From an uncultured Gammaproteobacteria bacterium (GTDB taxonomy: Bacteria; Pseudomonadota; Gammaproteobacteria; Thiohalorhabdales; CAYUWI01), in assembly GCA_964448275.1 (NCBI GenBank), contig CAYUWI010000002.1, forward strand, positions 1 to 47,553: a stretch of 47,553 nucleotides of DNA. The letters run 5' to 3'. The notes below the pieces were generated by a model. That model saw only the letters and a list, made by a program, of their open reading frames with translations. It was not told the origin of the DNA and made no database searches. The position numbers and the translations under genes were made by a program. How positions within the stretch are numbered: position 1 is the stretch's first letter; each line of letters begins with the position of its first letter. Shown in pieces: positions 8,617 through 46,384 of the stretch.

Positions 8617-9302
8617 GGTGGAGCGAGCCGATAGCCTACCCCACGGACGGTTTGAATGAAGTCAGCCCCCCCTACCCCAGAGAGTTCGAGCGCCTTTCGT
8701 AGACGGCGAATATGGACATCGACAGTGCGTTCCTCGACCTCGGCGTAGGGCCCCCAAACCCGATCGAGCAGGTGGTTACGCTCATAGACCTGGCCTGGGT
8801 GAGCAACAAGGACCTGGAGAAGGCGAAACTCGGTGAGGCTAAGTTGGATTTCGACCCCACCGTAGAAGACTTGATACTGGTGCGGGTAGAGGCGCAAGCT
8901 GCCAGAAATGCAAACCTCTCCACCAATTTCCGGATAGCTGCGCCGTAAGAGATTATTAATGCGAACAATCAACTCTCGAGGTGAGAAGGGCTTGGCGATG
9001 TAGTCATCTGCACCGATCTCCAACCCCCGAATTCGGTGCTCTTCCTCCCCTTTAACGGTAAGCATAATGATCGGGAGTTCGCGGAAGGCAGCTTCCTGGC
9101 GAAGCCGCTTGCATAGATCGAGACCACTTAGACCAGGGAGCATCCAATCCAATAATAGGAGGTAAGGGTGTTGCTCAGCGAGAAGTTCAAAGGCGTCCTC
9201 TGCTGCCTCCGCTATGATCACATCGAAGCCTGCGGCTTCGAGGTTGTGCTGAATTAGCGCTTGGATTGCGGTTTCATCCTCTACGATGAGGATCGTGCAC
9301 AC
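8613..9302 (-). CDS. phoB: phosphate-regulon response regulator PhoB (OmpR family)
   Basis: Receiver domain (ILIVEDE, LLLLDWMLPG, IAKPF) plus a winged-helix domain (VDVHIRRLRKAL, RGVGYRL). GTG start preceded by AAGGAAGGTGGG. Coupled to phoR. Confidence 0.85.
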   Translation of the reverse strand: MCTILIVEDETAIQALIQHNLEAAGFDVIIAEAAEDAFELLAEQHPYLLLLDWMLPGLSGLDLCKRLRQEAAFRELPIIMLTVKGEEEHRIRGLEIGADDYIAKPFSPRELIVRINNLLRRSYPEIGGEVCISGSLRLYPHQYQVFYGGVEIQLSLTEFRLLQVLVAHPGQVYERNHLLDRVWGPYAEVEERTVDVHIRRLRKALELSGVGGADFIQTVRGVGYRLAPP

Positions 9303-19854: not shown

Positions 19855-25000
<5,146 letters not shown>

Positions 25001-33291: not shown

Positions 33292-33750
33292 CTAGCCCTC
33301 TGGATCGATCGTAAAAAGGGCCTCACCGAACTCCACGGGTTGGGCATTTTCCACCAAGACCTCCTTAATTCGCCCTGCATGCTCGGACTCAATCTCATTA
33401 AACAGCTTCATAGCCTCAATCACGCACAAGATATCTCCCTGATTGACCCAATCACCAGGGTGAATATAGGGCTCAGCCTCTGGGGAGGGGGACCGGTAGA
33501 AAGTACCCACCATCGGAGCGTATTGAGTATATAACTCTTTTTCAGGTGGGGGAGCAGGCCTTGCCTGTTGTTCGGCAGAGGAGGGAGAGGGCTCCTGGGG
33601 GGACATCGCAGGAGTGGCAGGGGGTGGGGCAGAAGGTTCAGCCTGGCCTCGGGAGAGGCGGATACTCTGTTCACCCTCGGTGATCTCGAGCTCAGAGATA
33701 TCTGATTCTTTGAGCAGTTCGATGAGACGCCGGATCTTACGAATATCCAT
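33292..33750 (-). CDS. accB: acetyl-CoA carboxylase biotin carboxyl carrier protein
   Basis: The start was moved to the ATG at 33750 (MDIRKIRRLIELL; GGGGAGAG upstream). It has a Pro/Ala-rich linker and the biotinylation motif CVIEAMKLFNEIE. Length 152 aa. Confidence 0.9.
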   Translation of the reverse strand: MDIRKIRRLIELLKESDISELEITEGEQSIRLSRGQAEPSAPPPATPAMSPQEPSPSSAEQQARPAPPPEKELYTQYAPMVGTFYRSPSPEAEPYIHPGDWVNQGDILCVIEAMKLFNEIESEHAGRIKEVLVENAQPVEFGEALFTIDPEG

Positions 33751-34492
33751 TGCTCTCCCCTGGTTCCTGAAATACAAGATCACCCCTACCAATCCGTCGA
33801 TTCGCTTGGTTAAGTTGGAATTGCTCGGGGTGAGGAGCCATCCCCCCAGTCGTGCATAGTGGGAGCCTTCTGATATGGGTCCCATCGCAGGAGTCCCTTA
33901 GGGGGACATCATGGCCCCAAGTACTAGATGGGTCTCTTAGCACTCGCCCTGGGGAACAGGGCCAACACAACAGCGAATAATGTGAGTCTAGCTCCTTATG
34001 CTCCCCTCGAATCGGTTGGAAGTGCCTTTTTCTTGTTTCTTGGAAATCACCCCATCCTCCGAGTAGCTCGATTTGGCCACGGTGGTTCGGTCTTCCCAAG
34101 GTAAGGGGGTTTGCATAGTTCCCCGATCTGCGCTATGTGGCGACAGAATCTAAGCCACCTACGCGTAAGCTATATGGAAATCTAACATTATACGCTATTA
34201 TTGTCTTTTGCGTATCGAACTATCTGTTGATTGCAAACACGCTACCTGAACCTAGCTACAATGCAGGTTAAGATCCCTTTTTAAAAGGAAAAAGTTCATT
34301 TAACACATGGGAATACTACGGATGGGGAGGCTCCAATCGAGTTGGTCGAGCGCGTGACTGTTCCGGGTACGTTATTAGTTAACTGCTTATCTGCTTCGAT
34401 CAGGAAGCAAACAACTTTTCCTTGGTTACCGCAAGCGGCAGTGAAGCGATATCCATCAGTGATCCGGTTCCTGACCAAAGCGGATAGGCAAC

Positions 34493-34801
34493 TTAGTTAA
34501 GGTGGTCGATCCACCGTAGATAGGCGGGGAGGCCATGACCAATGGAGACTGCGATGATCTCTGGAACATCGTAAGGATGGTTCTCGACGACAGCGGCTTC
34601 CAGAGCGGGATAGAGTGCCTCCTTCGTCTTAATCATAAGTAGGATCTCTGTTTCTTCTTCGATTTGGCCTTCCCATTCGAATACGCTAACTCCGGCAGGG
34701 AATCGGTGTACACAGGCAGCAAGGCGCTCTTTGATCACTTTGTGACTTATACCCTGCGCTACCTCCTCATTGGGGCAAGTCGTGTATACAATAATGTTCA
34801 T
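34493..34801 (-). CDS. cutA: divalent-cation tolerance protein CutA
   Basis: 102-aa ORF with VYTTCP, RLAACV, Y.WEG-type (FEWEGQIEE) and HPYDVPEI motifs. Confidence 0.9.
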   Translation of the reverse strand: MNIIVYTTCPNEEVAQGISHKVIKERLAACVHRFPAGVSVFEWEGQIEEETEILLMIKTKEALYPALEAAVVENHPYDVPEIIAVSIGHGLPAYLRWIDHLN

Positions 34802-37746: not shown

Positions 37747-38170
37747 CTCCATTCACACCAGGCCCTTTTGAGGAGAGGGTGTGCTTGCCTTGGAACCGTT
37801 GTGGGTAATTGTTTACTGCAAGGAGATAATATGGAAGAAGACAGATCGCAGTAAACATGATAAGGTTAAATGGTATAATTTTGCAGAAAAAAATCGGATT
37901 ACGGCATAAAAGAGAATCTATAGTACCATACATCCTGGGTCGCTATTATTTACGCCCTCTATATAAGAGAGGAGGCGCATTATGGCGGTAAGGGCTTGCG
38001 GTATGCTCGGGTAGGGTATAGCTAGAGCATTGCAGGCGAGGGAGTGGCAAGAGAGAGCGGGTTAGGTGGCCTATACTAAGGAGCAGAGGAGATTGTATCC
38101 CCGGGATGACGATTCGGGGATGAGCAACCTGTAACACCGATCAAGATGGTTGTACGTGAGGAGTTGCGGT

Positions 38171-40483
38171 ATGCCGGAGGAACGTCGTGGGATACAGTGC
38201 AAGGTCGCGGAGGCTCAGAACAAGGACGTGGGGCGGGCCTACGCACGTATGGCTCCGGAAGACCTAGAGCGCCTGGGGGTAGAGGTCGGCGACTTCGTGC
38301 AGGTGATCGGCAAATACAATACGGCATGTAAGGCCATGCCCGCTCAGCGGGATAAGGAGGATCATGGACAACAATCTCCCTTGATCTACGATCCGGATAG
38401 CAAGGATTTCCAGGCTGTGCCTGATCAGGTAGATAAGCGGTACGCCACGGATACCTGGGAGGAGACCATTGCCAAGGCGGCCTCGACGATCGCCGTCCAG
38501 CTTGACGGTATCACACGCGAGAACGCGGGAGCTGGTCTGGACGATACCGTTGAGGTCCACCCCATTGAGTGCCAGCCGAGTAAGCGCATTGAGGTAAGCC
38601 CCATCAATGTGAATCTAAAAAGCGGGGACCTGCGGTATGTGAGCCTCTTCGAGGGCCTTCCACTGCAGCGAGGTGATCGCGTCCGGGCGACCCTCATGGG
38701 GAGCCGCACAGCCGATTTCCGGGTCGAGAGCACCGACCCCAAGGGGCCTGTCTACATCGTCCCGAGCACCAAGCTAGCAATCAGTGAACGCAAAAAGGAG
38801 AGTCAGAAGGAACAGGAGACCGAGCGCGCAGTCTCCTATGAAGATATCGGGGGGATCCAATCCCAGCTCCAGCACATTCGAGAGATGATCGAGCTGCCAT
38901 TGCGCTTTCCCGAAGTCTTCGAACGGCTCGGGATCGAGGCACCGAAGGGGGTCTTGCTCCACGGCCCTCCCGGCTGCGGCAAGACCCTGATCGCTCGGGC
39001 CATCGCCTATGAGGCAGAGGCCCAATTCTTTTCTGTGAGTGGCCCCGAGATCATGCATAAGTTCTACGGGGAGAGTGAAGCCCATCTGCGCAACATCTTC
39101 GAAGAGGCAACCAAGCACGGACCAAGCATCATCTTCTTGGACGAGATCGACGCGATCGCCCCCCGTCGCGAGCAGGTGGGAGGCGACGTGGAGAAGCGTG
39201 TAGTGGCGCAGCTGCTCGCCCTAATGGATGGGTTGACCAGCCGCCAGAATGTCGTGGTCATTGCCGCCACCAATATCCCGAACGTGATCGATCCAGCCTT
39301 ACGCCGTCCTGGCCGCTTTGACCGAGAGATAGAGATCCCGATTCCCGACCGGAGGGGGAGGCTCCAGATCCTGCAGGTCCACAGTCGGGGGATGTCCATG
39401 GCAGAAGATGTCAATTTGGAGCGGATGGCAGAGATCACCCATGGCTTCGTGGGCGCGGACCTGGAAGCACTCTGCCGCGAATCAGCGATGAACTGCCTGC
39501 GGCGGGTAGTCCCGGAGTTTGACTTCACCATGACCCGCCTCCCCTATGAGCAACTGATCAAACTCCAGATCTCGATGGACGACTTTCGGGCCGCACTGCA
39601 CGAGGTAGAGGCCTCAGCAATCCGCGAGGTCTTTGTCGATGTCCCGCCCGTGAAGTGGGATGAGATCGGCGGTTTGTCGACAGCCAAAGAGCGCCTCCAA
39701 GAGGCTGTGGAGTGGCCTCTCAAGTACCCACACCTCTTCGAACAGGCTGGAATCAGCCCGCCCAAAGGGATCCTCCTTGATGGCCCCCCAGGGACAGGAA
39801 AGACCCTATTAGCCAAGGCGATTGCCAATGAGAGCAATGTCAACTTGATCTCAGTCAAGGGGCCCTCACTCCTATCTATGTATGTGGGTGAGTCGGAGCG
39901 AGGGATCCGAGAGTCCTTCCACAAGGCCCGACAGGCCGCCCCTTGCATCCTCTTCTTCGACGAGATCGATGCCCTACTGCCCACCCGGTCTGGGGGGATT
40001 GCGGAGTCACGAGTGACCGAGCAGGTCCTGAGTCAATTCTTGGCGGAGATGGACGGGATCGAGGAACTCAAAGGGGTCCTGGTCTTGGGTGCAACCAACC
40101 GTATGGATAAGCTTGATCCAGCGGCGCTACGCCCGGGTCGCTTCGATGAGCTCGTCCATCTGCCTCTACCCAATGAGCAGGACCGCAAGGAGATCTTTGA
40201 GATCCACCTCCGGGATAAGCCGCTCGCCTCAGGAATCGACATTAATCGGCTTGCGGTTCGAACAGAGGGGCTTAGTGGTGCGATGATCTCCGGTATATGC
40301 GATGCAATGGCTCGGCGGGCGGTGCGCCGCGCCGTGGCCGATATCGAGAAAGTGAGTAATGAACAGCAAGACCTGGAAGTCCACATCACCCCAGAAGATG
40401 TTGAAAACGCGCTTGCTGAGCTTATTGCGACGGAGGAAGAGGAGCCCCACCACGAGCAAACCCAGAGTGAAAGCATCCAATAA
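38171..40483 (+). CDS. Cdc48/VAT/p97-like type II AAA+ ATPase (N domain + D1 + D2)
   Basis: The start was set to the ATG at 38171 (GAGGAG lies 7 nt upstream); a TTG at 38150 is also possible. The N domain resembles archaeal VAT (KVAEAQNKDVGRAYARM..., LDGITRENAGAGLDDTVEV). Two AAA modules are present: GPPGCGKT/IIFLDEID and GPPGTGKT/ILFFDEID. Both carry SRH-type motifs (ATN...DPALRRPGRFD). Length 770 aa. Confidence 0.85.
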   Translation: MPEERRGIQCKVAEAQNKDVGRAYARMAPEDLERLGVEVGDFVQVIGKYNTACKAMPAQRDKEDHGQQSPLIYDPDSKDFQAVPDQVDKRYATDTWEETIAKAASTIAVQLDGITRENAGAGLDDTVEVHPIECQPSKRIEVSPINVNLKSGDLRYVSLFEGLPLQRGDRVRATLMGSRTADFRVESTDPKGPVYIVPSTKLAISERKKESQKEQETERAVSYEDIGGIQSQLQHIREMIELPLRFPEVFERLGIEAPKGVLLHGPPGCGKTLIARAIAYEAEAQFFSVSGPEIMHKFYGESEAHLRNIFEEATKHGPSIIFLDEIDAIAPRREQVGGDVEKRVVAQLLALMDGLTSRQNVVVIAATNIPNVIDPALRRPGRFDREIEIPIPDRRGRLQILQVHSRGMSMAEDVNLERMAEITHGFVGADLEALCRESAMNCLRRVVPEFDFTMTRLPYEQLIKLQISMDDFRAALHEVEASAIREVFVDVPPVKWDEIGGLSTAKERLQEAVEWPLKYPHLFEQAGISPPKGILLDGPPGTGKTLLAKAIANESNVNLISVKGPSLLSMYVGESERGIRESFHKARQAAPCILFFDEIDALLPTRSGGIAESRVTEQVLSQFLAEMDGIEELKGVLVLGATNRMDKLDPAALRPGRFDELVHLPLPNEQDRKEIFEIHLRDKPLASGIDINRLAVRTEGLSGAMISGICDAMARRAVRRAVADIEKVSNEQQDLEVHITPEDVENALAELIATEEEEPHHEQTQSESIQ

Positions 40484-40604
40484 GGGGATCCTGCCAGAGG
40501 GGGAGTACCGACCGGTTGTTCCATACTGCATCCGAGAGGGCCAGGGAGGCCGCATGCAGGTCGACCCCTATAAAGGGATCCTTTGATCCTTTGACCTACG
40601 GGCT

Positions 40605-41174
40605 TCAAGCTCGTCGGGCACTCTCACCTCGCTTGATCCCACCCGCGATCAGATGGGCTACCCGCAGAGGTTCTGGTAAGGCTCCGTGGACAGCCAGGTG
40701 GGTGATGACCTGTTGGGCAGTAGTTTGAGAGATTCCAGCACGCTGGACATGTAGATTGGCGATCGGATCCATGGGACCCAAGCGGTGGAGGATACTCCAC
40801 TTCTGCTCACCGCCTGGGACACGTTTCAGAAGGGCTCGACGGATAGCCTTCCTGTCCGGTCTCCGACGGGTAATTGCCATGGCCGGGATCTCGAGTTGTC
40901 GGTGCAATGCTTCTAGGTCGACCACGTTGAAACCAGCCAGTGCTATCCCCTGGATCAAGATCAACTGAAGCTGGGGAAAGAATCGAGAATGTGCTAGGAG
41001 TCGAGCGAGCACCTCGGTAGCGTCATTGCCATCTCGGGTAACCTGACCACTGAGTATCCCTTCCAGGCGTAATCCGGAAAACACTGTCCCAACCACCAAG
41101 ACAGGTTCCCTCGAATCCCGCTCAAAAGGGGCATCATCAAAACCAACCACATGCGAGATGGCCGGCCTGCGCAC
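40605..41174 (-). CDS. DUF99/UPF0215 family protein (endonuclease V-like fold)
   Basis: 189-aa ORF with VVGFDDAPF near the N-terminus, a central IQGIALAGFNVVD motif and a C-terminal PEPLRVAHLIAGG motif. This matches my memory of the mainly archaeal DUF99 family. The GTG start lies 19 nt after the polA stop, with a GGGGAG RBS in between. Confidence 0.65.
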   Translation of the reverse strand: MRRPAISHVVGFDDAPFERDSREPVLVVGTVFSGLRLEGILSGQVTRDGNDATEVLARLLAHSRFFPQLQLILIQGIALAGFNVVDLEALHRQLEIPAMAITRRRPDRKAIRRALLKRVPGGEQKWSILHRLGPMDPIANLHVQRAGISQTTAQQVITHLAVHGALPEPLRVAHLIAGGIKRGESARRA

Positions 41175-41193
41175 TGCATAGAGCTCCCCGGCC

Positions 41194-43911
41194 TTAGTGG
41201 GCCTCTTCCCAATTCATGCCAATACCGACCTCGACCTCAAGCGGGACCTCCAATTCCGTGCCCTGAGTCATTAGAGTGGGGAGCTCACATTTGAGCCGTT
41301 GGGTCTCCTCGAATGGGCATTCAAGGACAAGCTCGTCATGGACCTGCATTAGCAGCCGGGCCTGTAATCCGCTCTGGATGAGCCAGTCGTCGACATTGAT
41401 CATCGCCTGCTTGATCGTATCGGCGGCGGAACCTTGGACAGGGGCATTGATGGCAGCTCTCTCGGCCGCTGCACGGACGGCGGGGGTCCGAGAGTGGATA
41501 TCCGGTAGATAGAGGCGACGACCGCGCAGGGTCTCTACATAGCCCTGATTGTGGGCCTGTTGCCGAGCCGCCCCCATATAGGCATAAACCCCTGGATAGC
41601 GAGCGAAATAGGCGTCAATGTAAGACTGGGCCTCCTCACGCGAGATCTCAAGCTGCTGAGCCAATCCGAAAGCGGACATCCCGTAGATCAGACCAAAGTT
41701 GATGGTCTTGGCGGCACGCCGCTGTTCTGGAGCAATCTGTTCTGGGCCTGAGGCCCCAAAGACCTCTGCTGCGGTCGCGGCGTGGATATCCTCACCCAAC
41801 GCAAAGGCCTGTCGCAGACGTGCGTCCCCCGAGATGTGGGCCATTAGACGGAGCTCGATCTGGGAATAATCAGCGGCCACCATCACCCATCCCGTTTCCG
41901 GGACAAAGGCCCGCCGAATGCGGCGGCCCCTCTCAGTACGGATCGGGATATTCTGGAGGTTCGGATCGCTTGACGAGAGCCGGCCCGTAGCCGTGGTGGC
42001 CTGGTGGTAGTGGGTATGAACTCTCCCAGTCTCCGGGTTGACCAACCGTGGCAAGGTATCAATGTAGGTCGATTTGAGCTTGGCCAAAGCCCGATACTCA
42101 AGGATCTTGGCTGGCAAGGGGTAATCGATCGCCAGTTGGGAGAGTACCTCCTCTGCAGTGGAGGGGGCCCCTTTCGGTGTACGCTTCAGCACAGGGAGTT
42201 CGTTGTCCTCGTAGAGGATCGCTTGGATCTGTTTGGGTGAGTTAAGATTAAACTTCGTACCAGCGAGTGTGTAAGCGTGATCCCTTAGCGATTCCATCTC
42301 AGCGGCAAGTTCCGCCCCAAGCTCCTCGAGCAAGCCTGCGTCCAAGCGGACCCCGGTACGCTCCACCTTCGCCAGGATCGGCATGAGGGGTAAGTCGAGC
42401 TCAGTATAAATTGCATACAGACGTGGCGATTGCTGCAACTCGGTCAATAGGTTATCCGCAAGGGTCAAAGTGGTCTCAGCATCCTCCCCCGCATAAGGGG
42501 TGGCTTGATCCACTGAGACCCGATCAAAGGTTACCTTCTTGGCCCCTTGCCCGGCCAGTTCCGAATAGGGGGTCAGGTAGCGTCCCAGCCGCTCCCTGGC
42601 CACAGTATCAAGGTCATGGTGGTGCCGACTGGGATTGAGTACGTAGCTCAGCAATAACGTATCTTGGAAGGGTCCGGCTACCTCGATCCCAGCCCGGGAG
42701 AGCACATTTAGATCGTATTTCAGATTGTGGCCAATCTTACAGATCCCTGTCTGAGCCAGAATCGGGCGGACAACATCGAGGACCTGGGTATAAGGCAGTT
42801 GCTCTGAACTCCCGTGGCCCGTGTGGCCAACGGGGATGTAGTAACCGCTTCCAGTTTCCACGGTGAAAGCGAGCCCGACCAAATCCGCAGTGACTGCTTG
42901 CAGCGAGGTAGTCTCGGTATCGAAGGCAAAACGGGTGGTGGATCCTAATCGGTTGATTAGCTCAGTAAGCTCTAGCTCTCGAGTCACCTTGTGGTACTGT
43001 GGTGATGCTTCAGCTCCCCTGCTGTTGTGCCCCTTCAGGGAACGGATCAAGCTATGGAATTCCAGCTCCAAGAGTAACTCCCGGAGACGATCGTGGTTCA
43101 GTTCACTCCGCTCAAGCTCATTGAGCCGGTGAGTTAACTCGAGCTGTCGGCGGATCGTAACGAGATTGCGGCTGAGTCGAAGTTGGTCAGCATAGGCCTC
43201 CAATTTGGCCCGCTGTTTCCCTTGGAGCTCGTCGAGATGGGCAAGGAGGTTATCTACCGAACCGTAGGCTGTGATTAGCTTGGTTGCCGTTTTGGCCCCG
43301 ATCCCAGGGACCCCAGGGATATTGTCTGAGGGATCCCCAACAAGAGCAAGATGATCTGGGATGTTGAGAGGGGGGACCCCGTAACGCTGAATAACGCGCT
43401 CGACGTCGATAACCTCGTCTTTCGCCGTGTCAAGTAGGCAAATCTTGGTATCGACCAGCTGGGCCATATCCTTGTCTGCTGTAACAATGACCACGTTTTG
43501 GTCCAAGCCCTCTGCTTGGGTAGCGAGGGTCCCAATGACATCATCTGCTTCCACCCCGGCCTCTGACAGGATGGGCAACCCAAAGGCCTCGGTTAGGCTG
43601 TGGATGTAGGGGATCTGCTGGGCAAGGTCTTCCGGCATTTCAGGCCGATTGGCCTTGTACTCTGGATAGAGTTCGTGACGGAAGGTCTTTCCCGGGGCAT
43701 CGAAAATGACCCCTACTTGATCAAGCTCATAATCGTTAAGCAACCGGGTGAGCATCTGGGCTACGCCGTAGATTGCGCCCGTAGCCAGGCCACTATGGGT
43801 AGATAGAGAGGGAAGGGCGTGATAGGCACGAAAGATATAGGAGCTTCCGTCAACCAAGAAGACTGGCTTCTGTTCTGTATCTACCATCAGAGCTAACGTA
43901 TCATGAGACAT
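41194..43911 (-). CDS. polA: DNA polymerase I
   Basis: 905-aa ORF with a 5'-3' exonuclease N-terminus, the 3'-5' exonuclease motif FAFDTETTSL, and polymerase motifs ADYSQIELRLMAH, RRAAKTINFGLIYG and QVHDELVLE. Confidence 0.95.
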   Translation of the reverse strand: MSHDTLALMVDTEQKPVFLVDGSSYIFRAYHALPSLSTHSGLATGAIYGVAQMLTRLLNDYELDQVGVIFDAPGKTFRHELYPEYKANRPEMPEDLAQQIPYIHSLTEAFGLPILSEAGVEADDVIGTLATQAEGLDQNVVIVTADKDMAQLVDTKICLLDTAKDEVIDVERVIQRYGVPPLNIPDHLALVGDPSDNIPGVPGIGAKTATKLITAYGSVDNLLAHLDELQGKQRAKLEAYADQLRLSRNLVTIRRQLELTHRLNELERSELNHDRLRELLLELEFHSLIRSLKGHNSRGAEASPQYHKVTRELELTELINRLGSTTRFAFDTETTSLQAVTADLVGLAFTVETGSGYYIPVGHTGHGSSEQLPYTQVLDVVRPILAQTGICKIGHNLKYDLNVLSRAGIEVAGPFQDTLLLSYVLNPSRHHHDLDTVARERLGRYLTPYSELAGQGAKKVTFDRVSVDQATPYAGEDAETTLTLADNLLTELQQSPRLYAIYTELDLPLMPILAKVERTGVRLDAGLLEELGAELAAEMESLRDHAYTLAGTKFNLNSPKQIQAILYEDNELPVLKRTPKGAPSTAEEVLSQLAIDYPLPAKILEYRALAKLKSTYIDTLPRLVNPETGRVHTHYHQATTATGRLSSSDPNLQNIPIRTERGRRIRRAFVPETGWVMVAADYSQIELRLMAHISGDARLRQAFALGEDIHAATAAEVFGASGPEQIAPEQRRAAKTINFGLIYGMSAFGLAQQLEISREEAQSYIDAYFARYPGVYAYMGAARQQAHNQGYVETLRGRRLYLPDIHSRTPAVRAAAERAAINAPVQGSAADTIKQAMINVDDWLIQSGLQARLLMQVHDELVLECPFEETQRLKCELPTLMTQGTELEVPLEVEVGIGMNWEEAH

Positions 43912-44177
43912 TGTGTCCTAGGATCCTGGGGAATGGAACCAAATTAGGGGAACGGACATCGGCCCCAGGAAGGAGATATTTTTTGCTGCTTATACCTAGC
44001 TATTTTGACAAGCCCCACTTGGCTATACTGTCAAACTGTGCAGTCGAGTGGCTTCATTCTATACGCTGAATCAAACGGTATGCGAACACCCTACTGACCG
44101 CGACCTTCTAGCAGGGTTCCCCATTCCCACTCGAGGCAACATCTCTGCCTCTCGCAGCAGATCGAGTCAAGCCCCTG

Positions 44178-44927
44178 ATGAAGAGAGATCAAAACCGTAG
44201 CCCAACATCTGACTCACGACCTCACGGCACTTCTAAAAGAGTCGGTAATAAGAGAAACCGCAACGCGAAGTGGAATGCCGAAATCATGGCCGAATTTAAC
44301 CGCGGCTTTGAGGAACTCACAGATCTCGGTCCTGCGGTTGCGATCTTCGGCTCAGCACGTATCCCATCGAGCCACCCCTTTTACGGGCTAACCCAAGATA
44401 TTGCAAGTCGGCTCTCCCACGCCGGGTTCGCCGTGATCAGTGGTGGTGGTCCTGGATTAATGGAGGCGGCCAACCGAGGTGCAATGGAAGGGTCGAGCTG
44501 GAGTGTCGGTTTGAATATCCAGCTTCCTGAGGAACAAGCCTCGAATCCGTATCAACATATCAGCTTAACCTTCCATCACTTCTTTGCCCGCAAGGTCATG
44601 TTCGTCAAGTATGCATCGGCCTATGTGGTCATGCCAGGTGGTTTTGGCACCCTAGATGAGGTGATTGAGGCACTAACCCTTCAGCAGACCCTCAAGGAGC
44701 AACGACGTTTCCCAACTATCCTAGTGGTCCGGTCCTTCTGGCAGGGATTGCTGGACTGGTTCAATGAGACCCTCCTAACCTATGACACCATTAGCTCGAC
44801 CGACTTTCAACTTTTCCAGGTTCTGGATGATCCTGCCGAGGTGGTGCAAGTCATCACCACATCCTACTCCAAAGGACAACAACCAACCTCCAAGGCAGGA
44901 GAGGGACAGTCGACGGAGTTCTATTAG
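44178..44927 (+). CDS. LOG family / TIGR00730 Rossmann-fold nucleotide-binding protein
   Basis: VAIFGSAR, ISGGGPGLMEAANRGA and the PGGFGTLDEVIE motif. The basic N-terminal 36 residues may not be translated; an alternative ATG lies at 44286. Confidence 0.85.
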   Translation: MKRDQNRSPTSDSRPHGTSKRVGNKRNRNAKWNAEIMAEFNRGFEELTDLGPAVAIFGSARIPSSHPFYGLTQDIASRLSHAGFAVISGGGPGLMEAANRGAMEGSSWSVGLNIQLPEEQASNPYQHISLTFHHFFARKVMFVKYASAYVVMPGGFGTLDEVIEALTLQQTLKEQRRFPTILVVRSFWQGLLDWFNETLLTYDTISSTDFQLFQVLDDPAEVVQVITTSYSKGQQPTSKAGEGQSTEFY

Positions 44928-44969
44928 AAAAGGCTGACGCCAGCGACAGATTGGTAGGAGGGATTAGTT

Positions 44970-45332
44970 GTGATTGGCAGTATGAGGTTCGGTGCGTCTT
45001 CGAGGAGCTGGCAAACACGTGCCGTGGCGGGCATCATCCTGTTAGGGGTTATCTTGTCCTTCAATCAGCAGCCAGTCTGGGGACAAGGGAGGCAGCTTCA
45101 AGACCCTCAAATCTCACCCGATCTAGAGCCTGAAGTACAGCTCATTCAGCCCGAGGGTGGCACCATTATGGAGATCGGCATCGATGGTAGGATCTATATG
45201 GTTAAGGTAACCTTCGAGCATGCTCCATCCTATTACCTGATCGACTATAACGACGACGGCGAGTGGGATACTCCATCTTTTGGACTCGGTCCTGAATTGG
45301 TCTCGCCCCAATGGGTCCTGTTCGAGTGGTGA
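44970..45332 (+). CDS. secreted small protein, DUF2782-like
   Basis: Signal-like N-terminus (AVAGIILLGVILSF). The C-terminus (YYLIDYNDDGEWD...PQWVLFEW) and the position between polA and thrB match my memory of the pseudomonad DUF2782 gene. Confidence 0.55.
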   Translation: MIGSMRFGASSRSWQTRAVAGIILLGVILSFNQQPVWGQGRQLQDPQISPDLEPEVQLIQPEGGTIMEIGIDGRIYMVKVTFEHAPSYYLIDYNDDGEWDTPSFGLGPELVSPQWVLFEW

Positions 45333-45427
45333 GCCTTGCTCCACGGCTGGCCCCCAAGGGCCCGAATGGCTACCTTCTACCCTTTTTGGTCTTCTTTGAG
45401 TTCGAGTCCAAGACGAGCGCATACGCG

Positions 45428-46384
45428 ATGTCAGTCTACACCCATGTCTCCATGGACGAGCTCCACTCCTTCCTCGAGCCCTTCTGGGTCGGTACACCCC
45501 AGGAGTTTGTCGGGATCTGCCAGGGTGTGGAGAACACGAACTACTTCCTGACCACGGATGAGGGCGCCTATGTCCTGACCATCTTCGAGCGCGTGAATCA
45601 GAGGGATCTCCCCTTCTTCTTGAACCTTATGGCGTTCTTGGCTGATCACGGTCTACCCACACCACGCCCCATCTCAAAGGGCAATGGCGATTACATTGAA
45701 GAGCTTGCTGGTAAGCCCGCCGCCCTCGTCACTCGCCTGCCAGGAAGAATCCATTATAGCCCGGAAGTGGTGCATTGCGCTGAGGTCGGACAGACCCTGG
45801 GCCGTATGCACCGAGTCGGTCGACACTTCCACCGCTACCGGCCGAATTCCCATGGCTTTGTTTGGTGGTACCGCACGGCGACCGCTCTAGAACCTTCCCT
45901 CAAACCCGATGAGAAGCAATTGGTTCAAGATGAGCTTGCCTACCAACGCTCCCACCAGCAGGTTGCAGTCCCAAGGGGTGTCATCCACGCCGACCTATTC
46001 CACGATAACGCCTTATTTGAGGATGATATCCTCACCGGGATCTTCGACTTCTACTATGCCTGCAATGATGTCTTGCTCTACGACCTCGCCATCGTGGTCA
46101 ACGATTGGTGTAGCCAACAAGATGCAAGCCTTGATCCCCAACGCACGGCGGCTGTCCTCCACCGCTACCACAGCAAGCGCCCACTTACCCAGCTCGAAGA
46201 GTCATTGTGGCCAACCTTCTTGCGCGCTGCTGCCCTCCGATTCTGGGTTTCGCGTTTATGGGACTACCATCACCCACGAGGCGGGCAACTGATTAGCACC
46301 AAGGATCCCGACCGTTTTCGGGCTATTCTCGAATGCCGCCGAAGCTCCTCTCAAGACCACTGGGTCGGTTGGCCCGCACTCTAA
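45428..46384 (+). CDS. thrB: homoserine kinase, ThrB type (aminoglycoside-phosphotransferase fold)
   Basis: The start was moved to the ATG at 45428 (MSVYTHVSMDELHSFL). Motifs GVENTNYFL, the catalytic loop VIHADLFHDNALF, and IFDFYYACND. Length 318 aa. Confidence 0.85.
   Translation: MSVYTHVSMDELHSFLEPFWVGTPQEFVGICQGVENTNYFLTTDEGAYVLTIFERVNQRDLPFFLNLMAFLADHGLPTPRPISKGNGDYIEELAGKPAALVTRLPGRIHYSPEVVHCAEVGQTLGRMHRVGRHFHRYRPNSHGFVWWYRTATALEPSLKPDEKQLVQDELAYQRSHQQVAVPRGVIHADLFHDNALFEDDILTGIFDFYYACNDVLLYDLAIVVNDWCSQQDASLDPQRTAAVLHRYHSKRPLTQLEESLWPTFLRAAALRFWVSRLWDYHHPRGGQLISTKDPDRFRAILECRRSSSQDHWVGWPAL

Follow-up and report, generated by a model that had tools for sequence, protein, structure and literature searches.

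An Endo_dU family gene directly behind polA in a small clade of Thiohalorhabdus-related bacteria: a probable bicistron of lineage-specific standing

What does it mean when a gene for a nuclease of the DUF99 (UPF0215) family stands directly behind the gene for DNA polymerase I (Pol I)? The question is raised by a 47,553-nt stretch of contig CAYUWI010000002.1, hereafter the window, in which the DUF99 gene, here called endo_dU, begins 19 nt beyond the stop codon of polA on the same strand (Table 1). An earlier, sequence-only reading of this DNA had taken the two genes for a possible nick-and-replace repair pair. We find that the pairing is confined to a small clade of salt-loving sulfur bacteria, namely the window organism and Thiohalorhabdus, and we consider it likely that the two genes form one transcript that was inherited within this clade as a lineage-specific and dispensable arrangement, rather than a dedicated module maintained by selection. 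The nuclease family itself is known; what is new is its genomic context behind polA, which is absent from the paper that characterised the family, where the only linkage given is that to the uracil-DNA glycosylase (UDG) gene in haloarchaea (PMC11585767).

The product of endo_dU is a member of the family defined by PF01949, now named Endo_dU (Endonuclease dU) in Pfam: the match (E=5.9e-57; 192.4 bits against a cut-off of 32.7) lays residues 8-180 on profile positions 4-181 of 182, confirming the earlier assignment of the open reading frame (ORF) downstream of polA to DUF99. The GTG start fits the homologues, whose N-termini open 3-4 residues ahead of the conserved SHV[IV]GFDD, and the 49 columns at which 24 bacterial homologues are invariant are preserved in the protein without exception. 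A phmmer comparison with PDB entry 2QH9 (AF_1433) gave E=3.8e-29 over residues 11-188, with ~30% identity in the aligned region, and placed D13 (41136-41138) and H174 (40653-40655) opposite D13 and H169 of the 2QH9 chain. We infer that these two residues are equivalent to D10 and H166 of the Archaeoglobus fulgidus enzyme AfuEndo_dU, reading the 3-residue shift in numbering as the offset of an N-terminal tag; both are invariant among the 24 bacterial homologues, and the motifs proposed to form the uracil pocket are likewise retained. Homology to 2QH9 further predicts an RNase H-like fold. The earlier description as EndoV-like found no backing in an EndoV Pfam match. Membership in the EndoV (nfi) family itself was rejected, PF01949 being the sole Pfam family at E<=0.01. 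The protein also scores under the NCBIfam equivalog cut-offs of PRK00766 (NF001977; 180.4 against 235 bits) and EndoDuHalo (NF052283; 62.2 against 200 bits). Judged by these profiles, it belongs to the Pfam family and lies outside the narrower archaeal-type equivalog groups, being a bacterial-type Endo_dU, distinct from EndoV and from the haloarchaeal type. The G+C content at third codon positions (GC3) of the gene, 0.55, is inside the window range of 0.52-0.70, and the gene forms no compositional island; a recent horizontal insertion behind polA was considered and discarded, there being neither such a compositional signal nor flanking repeats.

What such a protein might do is indicated by the family's only enzymology study (Li et al., J Biol Chem 2024; PMC11585767), in which five purified DUF99 proteins, one of them gammaproteobacterial (GmEndo_dU, TLY50285.1), nicked single- and double-stranded DNA 3' of deoxyuridine (dU). 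Deoxyinosine (dI), apurinic/apyrimidinic (AP) sites, mismatches and RNA were not cleaved, the A. fulgidus and Halobacterium enzymes being those studied most closely; these two remain active in EDTA, and the D10A/H166A double mutant of AfuEndo_dU is inactive. The same work places DUF99 phylogenetically outside EndoV, recovers the bacterial DUF99 proteins as a monophyletic clade of their own, and states that the steps following the nick are unknown. By analogy with these enzymes, the window protein would be expected to nick DNA at dU. The bacterial type is present in at least 555 GTDB species-representative genomes, and a scan of IMG/VR for phage polA-DUF99 pairs recovered no viral DUF99. Two statements of the sequence-only reading need revision in this light: that the family has no settled function is outdated, in view of the dU-nicking activity and the Pfam name, and that it is mainly archaeal is inaccurate, given the number of bacterial genomes that carry it and the distinct bacterial clade.

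The upstream gene encodes an intact Pol I with all three domains on one chain. Its 5'-3' exonuclease comprises PF02739 (5_3_exonuc_N; E=8e-58, residues 17-178) and PF01367 (5_3_exonuc; E=1.7e-31, residues 179-272); its 3'-5' proofreading exonuclease retains intact FDTET (330-334), NLKYD (396-400) and YAGEDA (473-478), which we take to correspond to the catalytic motifs Exo I-III of the E. coli enzyme; and the polymerase motifs are likewise present. The protein surpasses both NCBIfam equivalog cut-offs for Pol I, with 1150 against 720 bits for NF004397 (PRK05755) and 960 against 600 for TIGR00593. Its nearest relatives are those of Thiohalorhabdus sp. (Gammaproteobacteria, Thiohalorhabdales), at 64-67% identity, followed by the next best at ~55%.

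The junction between the two genes has an operon-like appearance. A Shine-Dalgarno-like GGGGAG (41189-41184) stands 9 nt ahead of the GTG, and the junction contains neither a terminator-like site nor an inverted repeat and folds no better than shuffled sequences (z=+0.43). On the minus strand, a scan restricted to sigma-70 consensus sites returned no sigma-70-like promoter, and terminator-like sites number two, against 3.2 expected from shuffles, both within ORFs. A candidate terminator at 41104-41084 was rejected, as it lies within the DUF99 ORF and has just three G-C pairs, with the count of such sites below shuffle expectation. A second, independently made assembly (Logan SRR14300226, termed L086) shows the junction unchanged, so that it is no artefact of assembly. 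The layout described in the sequence-only reading (same strand, 19-nt gap, GGGGAG Shine-Dalgarno and no terminator-like hairpin) is thus exact, and its interpretation as operon-like stands, the scan for sigma-70-like promoters on that strand agreeing with it. Based on this arrangement, we propose that polA and endo_dU are probably co-transcribed in this genome from the polA promoter. That promoter presumably lies in the divergent intergenic region ahead of polA, in which the scan for sigma-70 consensus sites detected none, and the transcript is presumed to end in the convergent region beyond the endo_dU stop, where no canonical terminator was found and the fold is again not better than that of shuffles (z=+0.27).

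We then examined the equivalent position in the closest relatives of the window organism, which itself seems to represent an undescribed sister lineage of Thiohalorhabdus. Two Thiohalorhabdus metagenome-assembled genomes carry Endo_dU behind polA on the same strand, with gaps of 172 nt (L087) and 112 nt (L089), and two further genomes have no Endo_dU there, the place being occupied by a convergent SIR2 gene in L088 and by a TetR gene in L107; L108 and L109 were left out as uninformative, their contigs stopping 36-156 nt past polA. The pairing is thus present in the window and in two of the four informative relatives, that is, in three of five genomes, with the tight 19-nt spacing seen only in the window genome. 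In a PolA tree the window branches off first, outside all seven remaining sequences (196/200 bootstraps); among these, L107 pairs with L087, and the sister of L088 is a group that includes L089. Because DUF99-positive genomes stand on both sides of the basal split, the arrangement was probably ancestral to the clade and subsequently lost or replaced twice. Common descent of the three polA-linked DUF99 proteins also finds weak support in the rare residues P24, D51, H142 and V172 that they share, a pattern matched by only 0.7% of random triplets.

As a separate observation on these relatives, the 172-nt spacer of L087 holds, at 8790-8863, a GC-rich inverted repeat (GGAGCCCGCTTCAGCGGGCGA / TCCCGCCCTGAAGCGGGCTCC) with 21-nt arms set 32 nt apart and a fold z-score of -1.9. 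It could be a REP-like (repetitive extragenic palindromic) element or a T-less terminator, and no repeat of this type is present in L089 or in the window.

Beyond the clade, we assembled a comparison set of 85 loci, consisting of 80 genome loci with the closest bacterial DUF99 genes and five loci from three further organisms, with origins in the Gemmatimonadota, Gamma- and Betaproteobacteria, Sorangium, Chloroflexota, Acidobacteriota and others. Searches by tblastn with the window PolA placed polA within 6 kb of DUF99 in none of them. Metagenome contigs scanned with the same query yielded 17 loci, of which none was above 55% identity or carried DUF99, and added no members to the clade, so that neither the 85 DUF99 loci nor the PolA loci at <=55% identity furnished a case of polA-DUF99 adjacency in an independent bacterial lineage. 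When the 119 genes immediately adjoining bacterial DUF99 genes were classified by Pfam, neither UDG nor a polymerase nor any repair family recurred, the top family being PBP with four hits, and the largest blastp cluster of neighbours covers seven loci, all from Sorangium or Chondromyces. With polA at none of the 85 loci and neighbour synteny only at the level of single lineages, bacterial endo_dU genes appear to be without a conserved partner. Consequently, the recurrence that the sequence-only reading had proposed to look for in other bacteria is borne out within the Thiohalorhabdus clade and fails throughout the comparison set, and the physical coupling that it had treated as a clue to function is a weak one, seen in a single clade and loosened to 112-172 nt in the relatives.

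In light of the activity reported for the family, we can nevertheless sketch how the two products may cooperate. From one polA-promoted transcript, endo_dU would be translated from its own GGGGAG/GTG site; Endo_dU would nick the strand directly 3' of dU, leaving dU as the 3'-terminal nucleotide; the 3'-5' proofreading exonuclease of Pol I would remove this terminal dU, a U:G mispair, as produced by cytosine deamination, being a favoured substrate; and resynthesis by Pol I would be followed by sealing by ligase. Pol I is the general nick and gap processor of the cell, and its finishing Endo_dU-initiated repair is plausible since a dU at the 3' terminus could be excised by its proofreading exonuclease; joint expression with polA would be in keeping with such a scheme. 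The polA linkage therefore offers a modest, testable hint to the post-nick step of Endo_dU repair, and, being confined to one clade and probably lost twice within it, is by itself no proof of a dedicated pathway.

Several points weigh against even the limited reading that we favour, that of a single transcript inherited within one clade. Co-transcription is a prediction from spacing. The DUF99 tree is star-like, with 17% bootstrap for the grouping of the window, L087 and L089, and the window DUF99 is 63-65% identical to DUF99 proteins of other phyla as against 56-57% to those of Thiohalorhabdus, so that common descent of the arrangement is not proven. In L087 and L089 the spacers measure 112-172 nt and that of L087 carries the repeat with 21-nt arms, by reason of which endo_dU may be expressed independently there. 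On the biochemical side, the end chemistry of the Endo_dU nick (3'-OH or 3'-phosphate) was not determined in PMC11585767, and if the 3' end were blocked Pol I could not act on it directly; the EDTA-insensitive activity is likewise mechanistically unexplained in that study.

The most serious alternative goes further and holds that selection keeps polA and endo_dU together as a dedicated nick-and-replace module, with Pol I as the specific partner of Endo_dU and the two made in stoichiometric amounts. We regard this as unlikely, though not without attractions: the 19-nt coupling with its Shine-Dalgarno site and the intact proofreading motifs of PolA would suit it, adjacency has been kept across 64-68% PolA divergence in three lineages, against a changing set of genes beyond it (ExoD, Lactamase_B, cdc48-like), pathways leading from EndoV to Pol I exist in E. 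coli and B. subtilis, haloarchaeal Endo_dU is also linked to a uracil-repair gene, that for UDG, and the published account of the family leaves the steps after the nick vacant (PMC11585767). However, a module of this kind sits poorly with the lack of polA at all 85 other bacterial DUF99 loci, with the two losses or replacements of the pairing inside the clade, and with the 112-172-nt spacers of the relatives. Moreover, by a rough estimate (~100 of ~3000 genes) the chance that a DNA-metabolism gene adjoins is ~7%, so that its occurrence in one lineage among dozens is within expectation, and, Pol I being engaged in almost every kind of excision repair, no special link is required. It is doubtful that Endo_dU and Pol I constitute a minimal dedicated pathway of alternative excision for uracil, in which the mispaired dU at the 3' terminus would suit the proofreading exonuclease of Pol I ideally and dC would be re-inserted with no need for a glycosylase or an AP endonuclease; were this true, the bicistron of the clade would be the first genomic trace of the missing downstream step of the Endo_dU pathway.

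Somewhat less likely again is that the two genes are incidental neighbours, with endo_dU read from a promoter of its own embedded in the polA 3' end and a neutral synteny devoid of functional meaning. The otherwise orphan state of bacterial DUF99 genes, whose neighbours differ by lineage, would agree with this, as would the variability of the region downstream of polA in the clade, the long spacers of the relatives and the restriction of the promoter scan to sigma-70 consensus sites. Yet with a gap of 19 nt, no terminator and no promoter-like site on that strand, read-through from polA would be hard to avoid even with an internal promoter. Least probable of all, and concerned with function so that it is compatible with any explanation of the layout, is the view that bacterial DUF99 acts in vivo on a target other than dU (another lesion or a nucleic-acid intermediate) and that the dU-nicking assignment is not transferable, since, for all that the assignment stems from a single enzymology study with a 10-fold enzyme excess, EDTA-insensitive activity and a heat-labile enzyme from a hyperthermophile (PMC11585767), that the window protein falls under both NCBIfam equivalog cut-offs (180 against 235 and 62 against 200) and that the bacterial loci share no recurring UDG or other uracil-repair neighbour, one of the five proteins with reported cleavage of dU-DNA is gammaproteobacterial (PMC11585767), and the activity residues and proposed uracil-pocket motifs are conserved in the window protein.

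Table 1. Positions in the window of the polA-endo_dU pair, the Pol I domains and the flanking intergenic regions
Feature	Position	Strand	Description
endo_dU (DUF99/UPF0215)	40605..41174	-	189 aa; GTG start, TGA stop; PF01949
polA-endo_dU spacer	41175..41193	-	19 nt; coding strand GGCCGGGGAGCTCTATGCA
polA (DNA polymerase I)	41194..43911	-	905 aa; ATG at 43911, TAA at 41196-41194; ORF list, Pfam and NCBIfam
PolA family-A polymerase domain	41203..42330	-	aa 528-903; PF00476 (DNA_pol_A), E=9.5e-159, profile positions 4-381 of 381
PolA 3'-5' proofreading exonuclease domain	42433..42996	-	aa 306-493; PF01612 (DNA_pol_A_exo1), E=3.5e-29
PolA 5'-3' exonuclease (flap nuclease) domain	43096..43863	-	aa 17-272
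Convergent intergenic region, endo_dU stop / cdc48-like AAA ATPase stop	40484..40604	.	121 nt; ORF list
Divergent intergenic region, polA / LOG-family gene	43912..44177	.	266 nt; ORF list

The surroundings of the pair offer several observations of their own. Convergent to endo_dU, at 38150-40483 (+), lies a gene for a Cdc48/p97-like double-AAA ATPase with CDC48_N, CDC48_2 and two AAA domains; its ORF spans 777 aa in the window and 770 aa as called in L086, and its GC3 of 0.70 is the highest of the window. This gene is not found at the matching position in the Thiohalorhabdus relatives, which have ExoD, Lactamase_B, SIR2 or TetR instead, and these differences make the DNA beyond polA look like a variable site. 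On the other side, at 44178-46384 (+) and divergent from polA, a block of LOG-family, DUF2782 and APH-type phosphotransferase genes is kept in all Thiohalorhabdus-like relatives. The mechanical ORFs of this block are longer than the genes called in the relatives (357 against 322 aa for APH and 249 against 213-240 aa for LOG), and as the APH ORF moreover overlaps that of DUF2782 by 22 nt, the true starts are probably further downstream. Both lie in the annotated portion of the window, from ~28 to 47.5 kb, which carries the housekeeping genes purD, purH, prmA, accC, accB, fxsA and groES-groEL; for the proteins encoded there, the databases searched offered nothing nearer than ~65-67%. Within it, the ~600 nt at 33886-34492, between an accB-like gene (33292-33885, -) and a 102-aa ORF (34493-34801, -), contain no convincing ORF, tRNA or Rfam match. 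Taken as a whole (1-47553, 47.5 kb), the window is 55.7% G+C and devoid of tRNA, rRNA and Rfam elements, and its longest ORF, of 1395 aa, is at 20813-25000 (+).

Set against known systems, the polA-endo_dU pair of this clade can be compared with EndoV-initiated repair, with the characterised Endo_dU enzymes and with the haloarchaeal Endo_dU-UDG pair. The link from EndoV to Pol I, which the sequence-only reading had invoked, is indeed in the literature: in E. coli, repair begun by EndoV (nfi) is completed by Pol I according to Lee et al. 2010 and 2013, as cited in PMC4563847, and in B. subtilis a pathway of EndoV (YwqL), ExoA and PolA has been described, in which EndoV-nicked U lesions required ExoA before PolA could act (PMC6364969). 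The scheme proposed here resembles EndoV repair in that an endonuclease of RNase H fold cuts the strand 3' of a deaminated base, with a 3'-5' exonuclease and resynthesis by Pol I to follow. In contrast, Endo_dU is a separate family that cuts directly 3' of dU rather than at the second bond and leaves dI uncut, and the Pol I step, known for EndoV, is proposed for Endo_dU by analogy.

Compared with AfuEndo_dU (AF_1433, 2QH9) and GmEndo_dU, the window protein shares the full-length PF01949 match, the homology to 2QH9, the residues D13 and H174 corresponding to D10 and H166, and membership in a bacterial clade with one assayed member; it differs in being ~30% identical to the archaeal structure, in scoring under the NCBIfam cut-offs and in having its gene directly behind polA. 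As regards the haloarchaeal pair of H. volcanii and H. salinarum, the partner here is Pol I and not UDG, endo_dU is the downstream gene, and the protein reaches 62 of the 200 bits set by NF052283. The organisation is alike in that in both cases an Endo_dU gene is tightly linked on the same strand to a repair gene, at 24-27 bp in the haloarchaea, with co-transcription presumed (PMC11585767).

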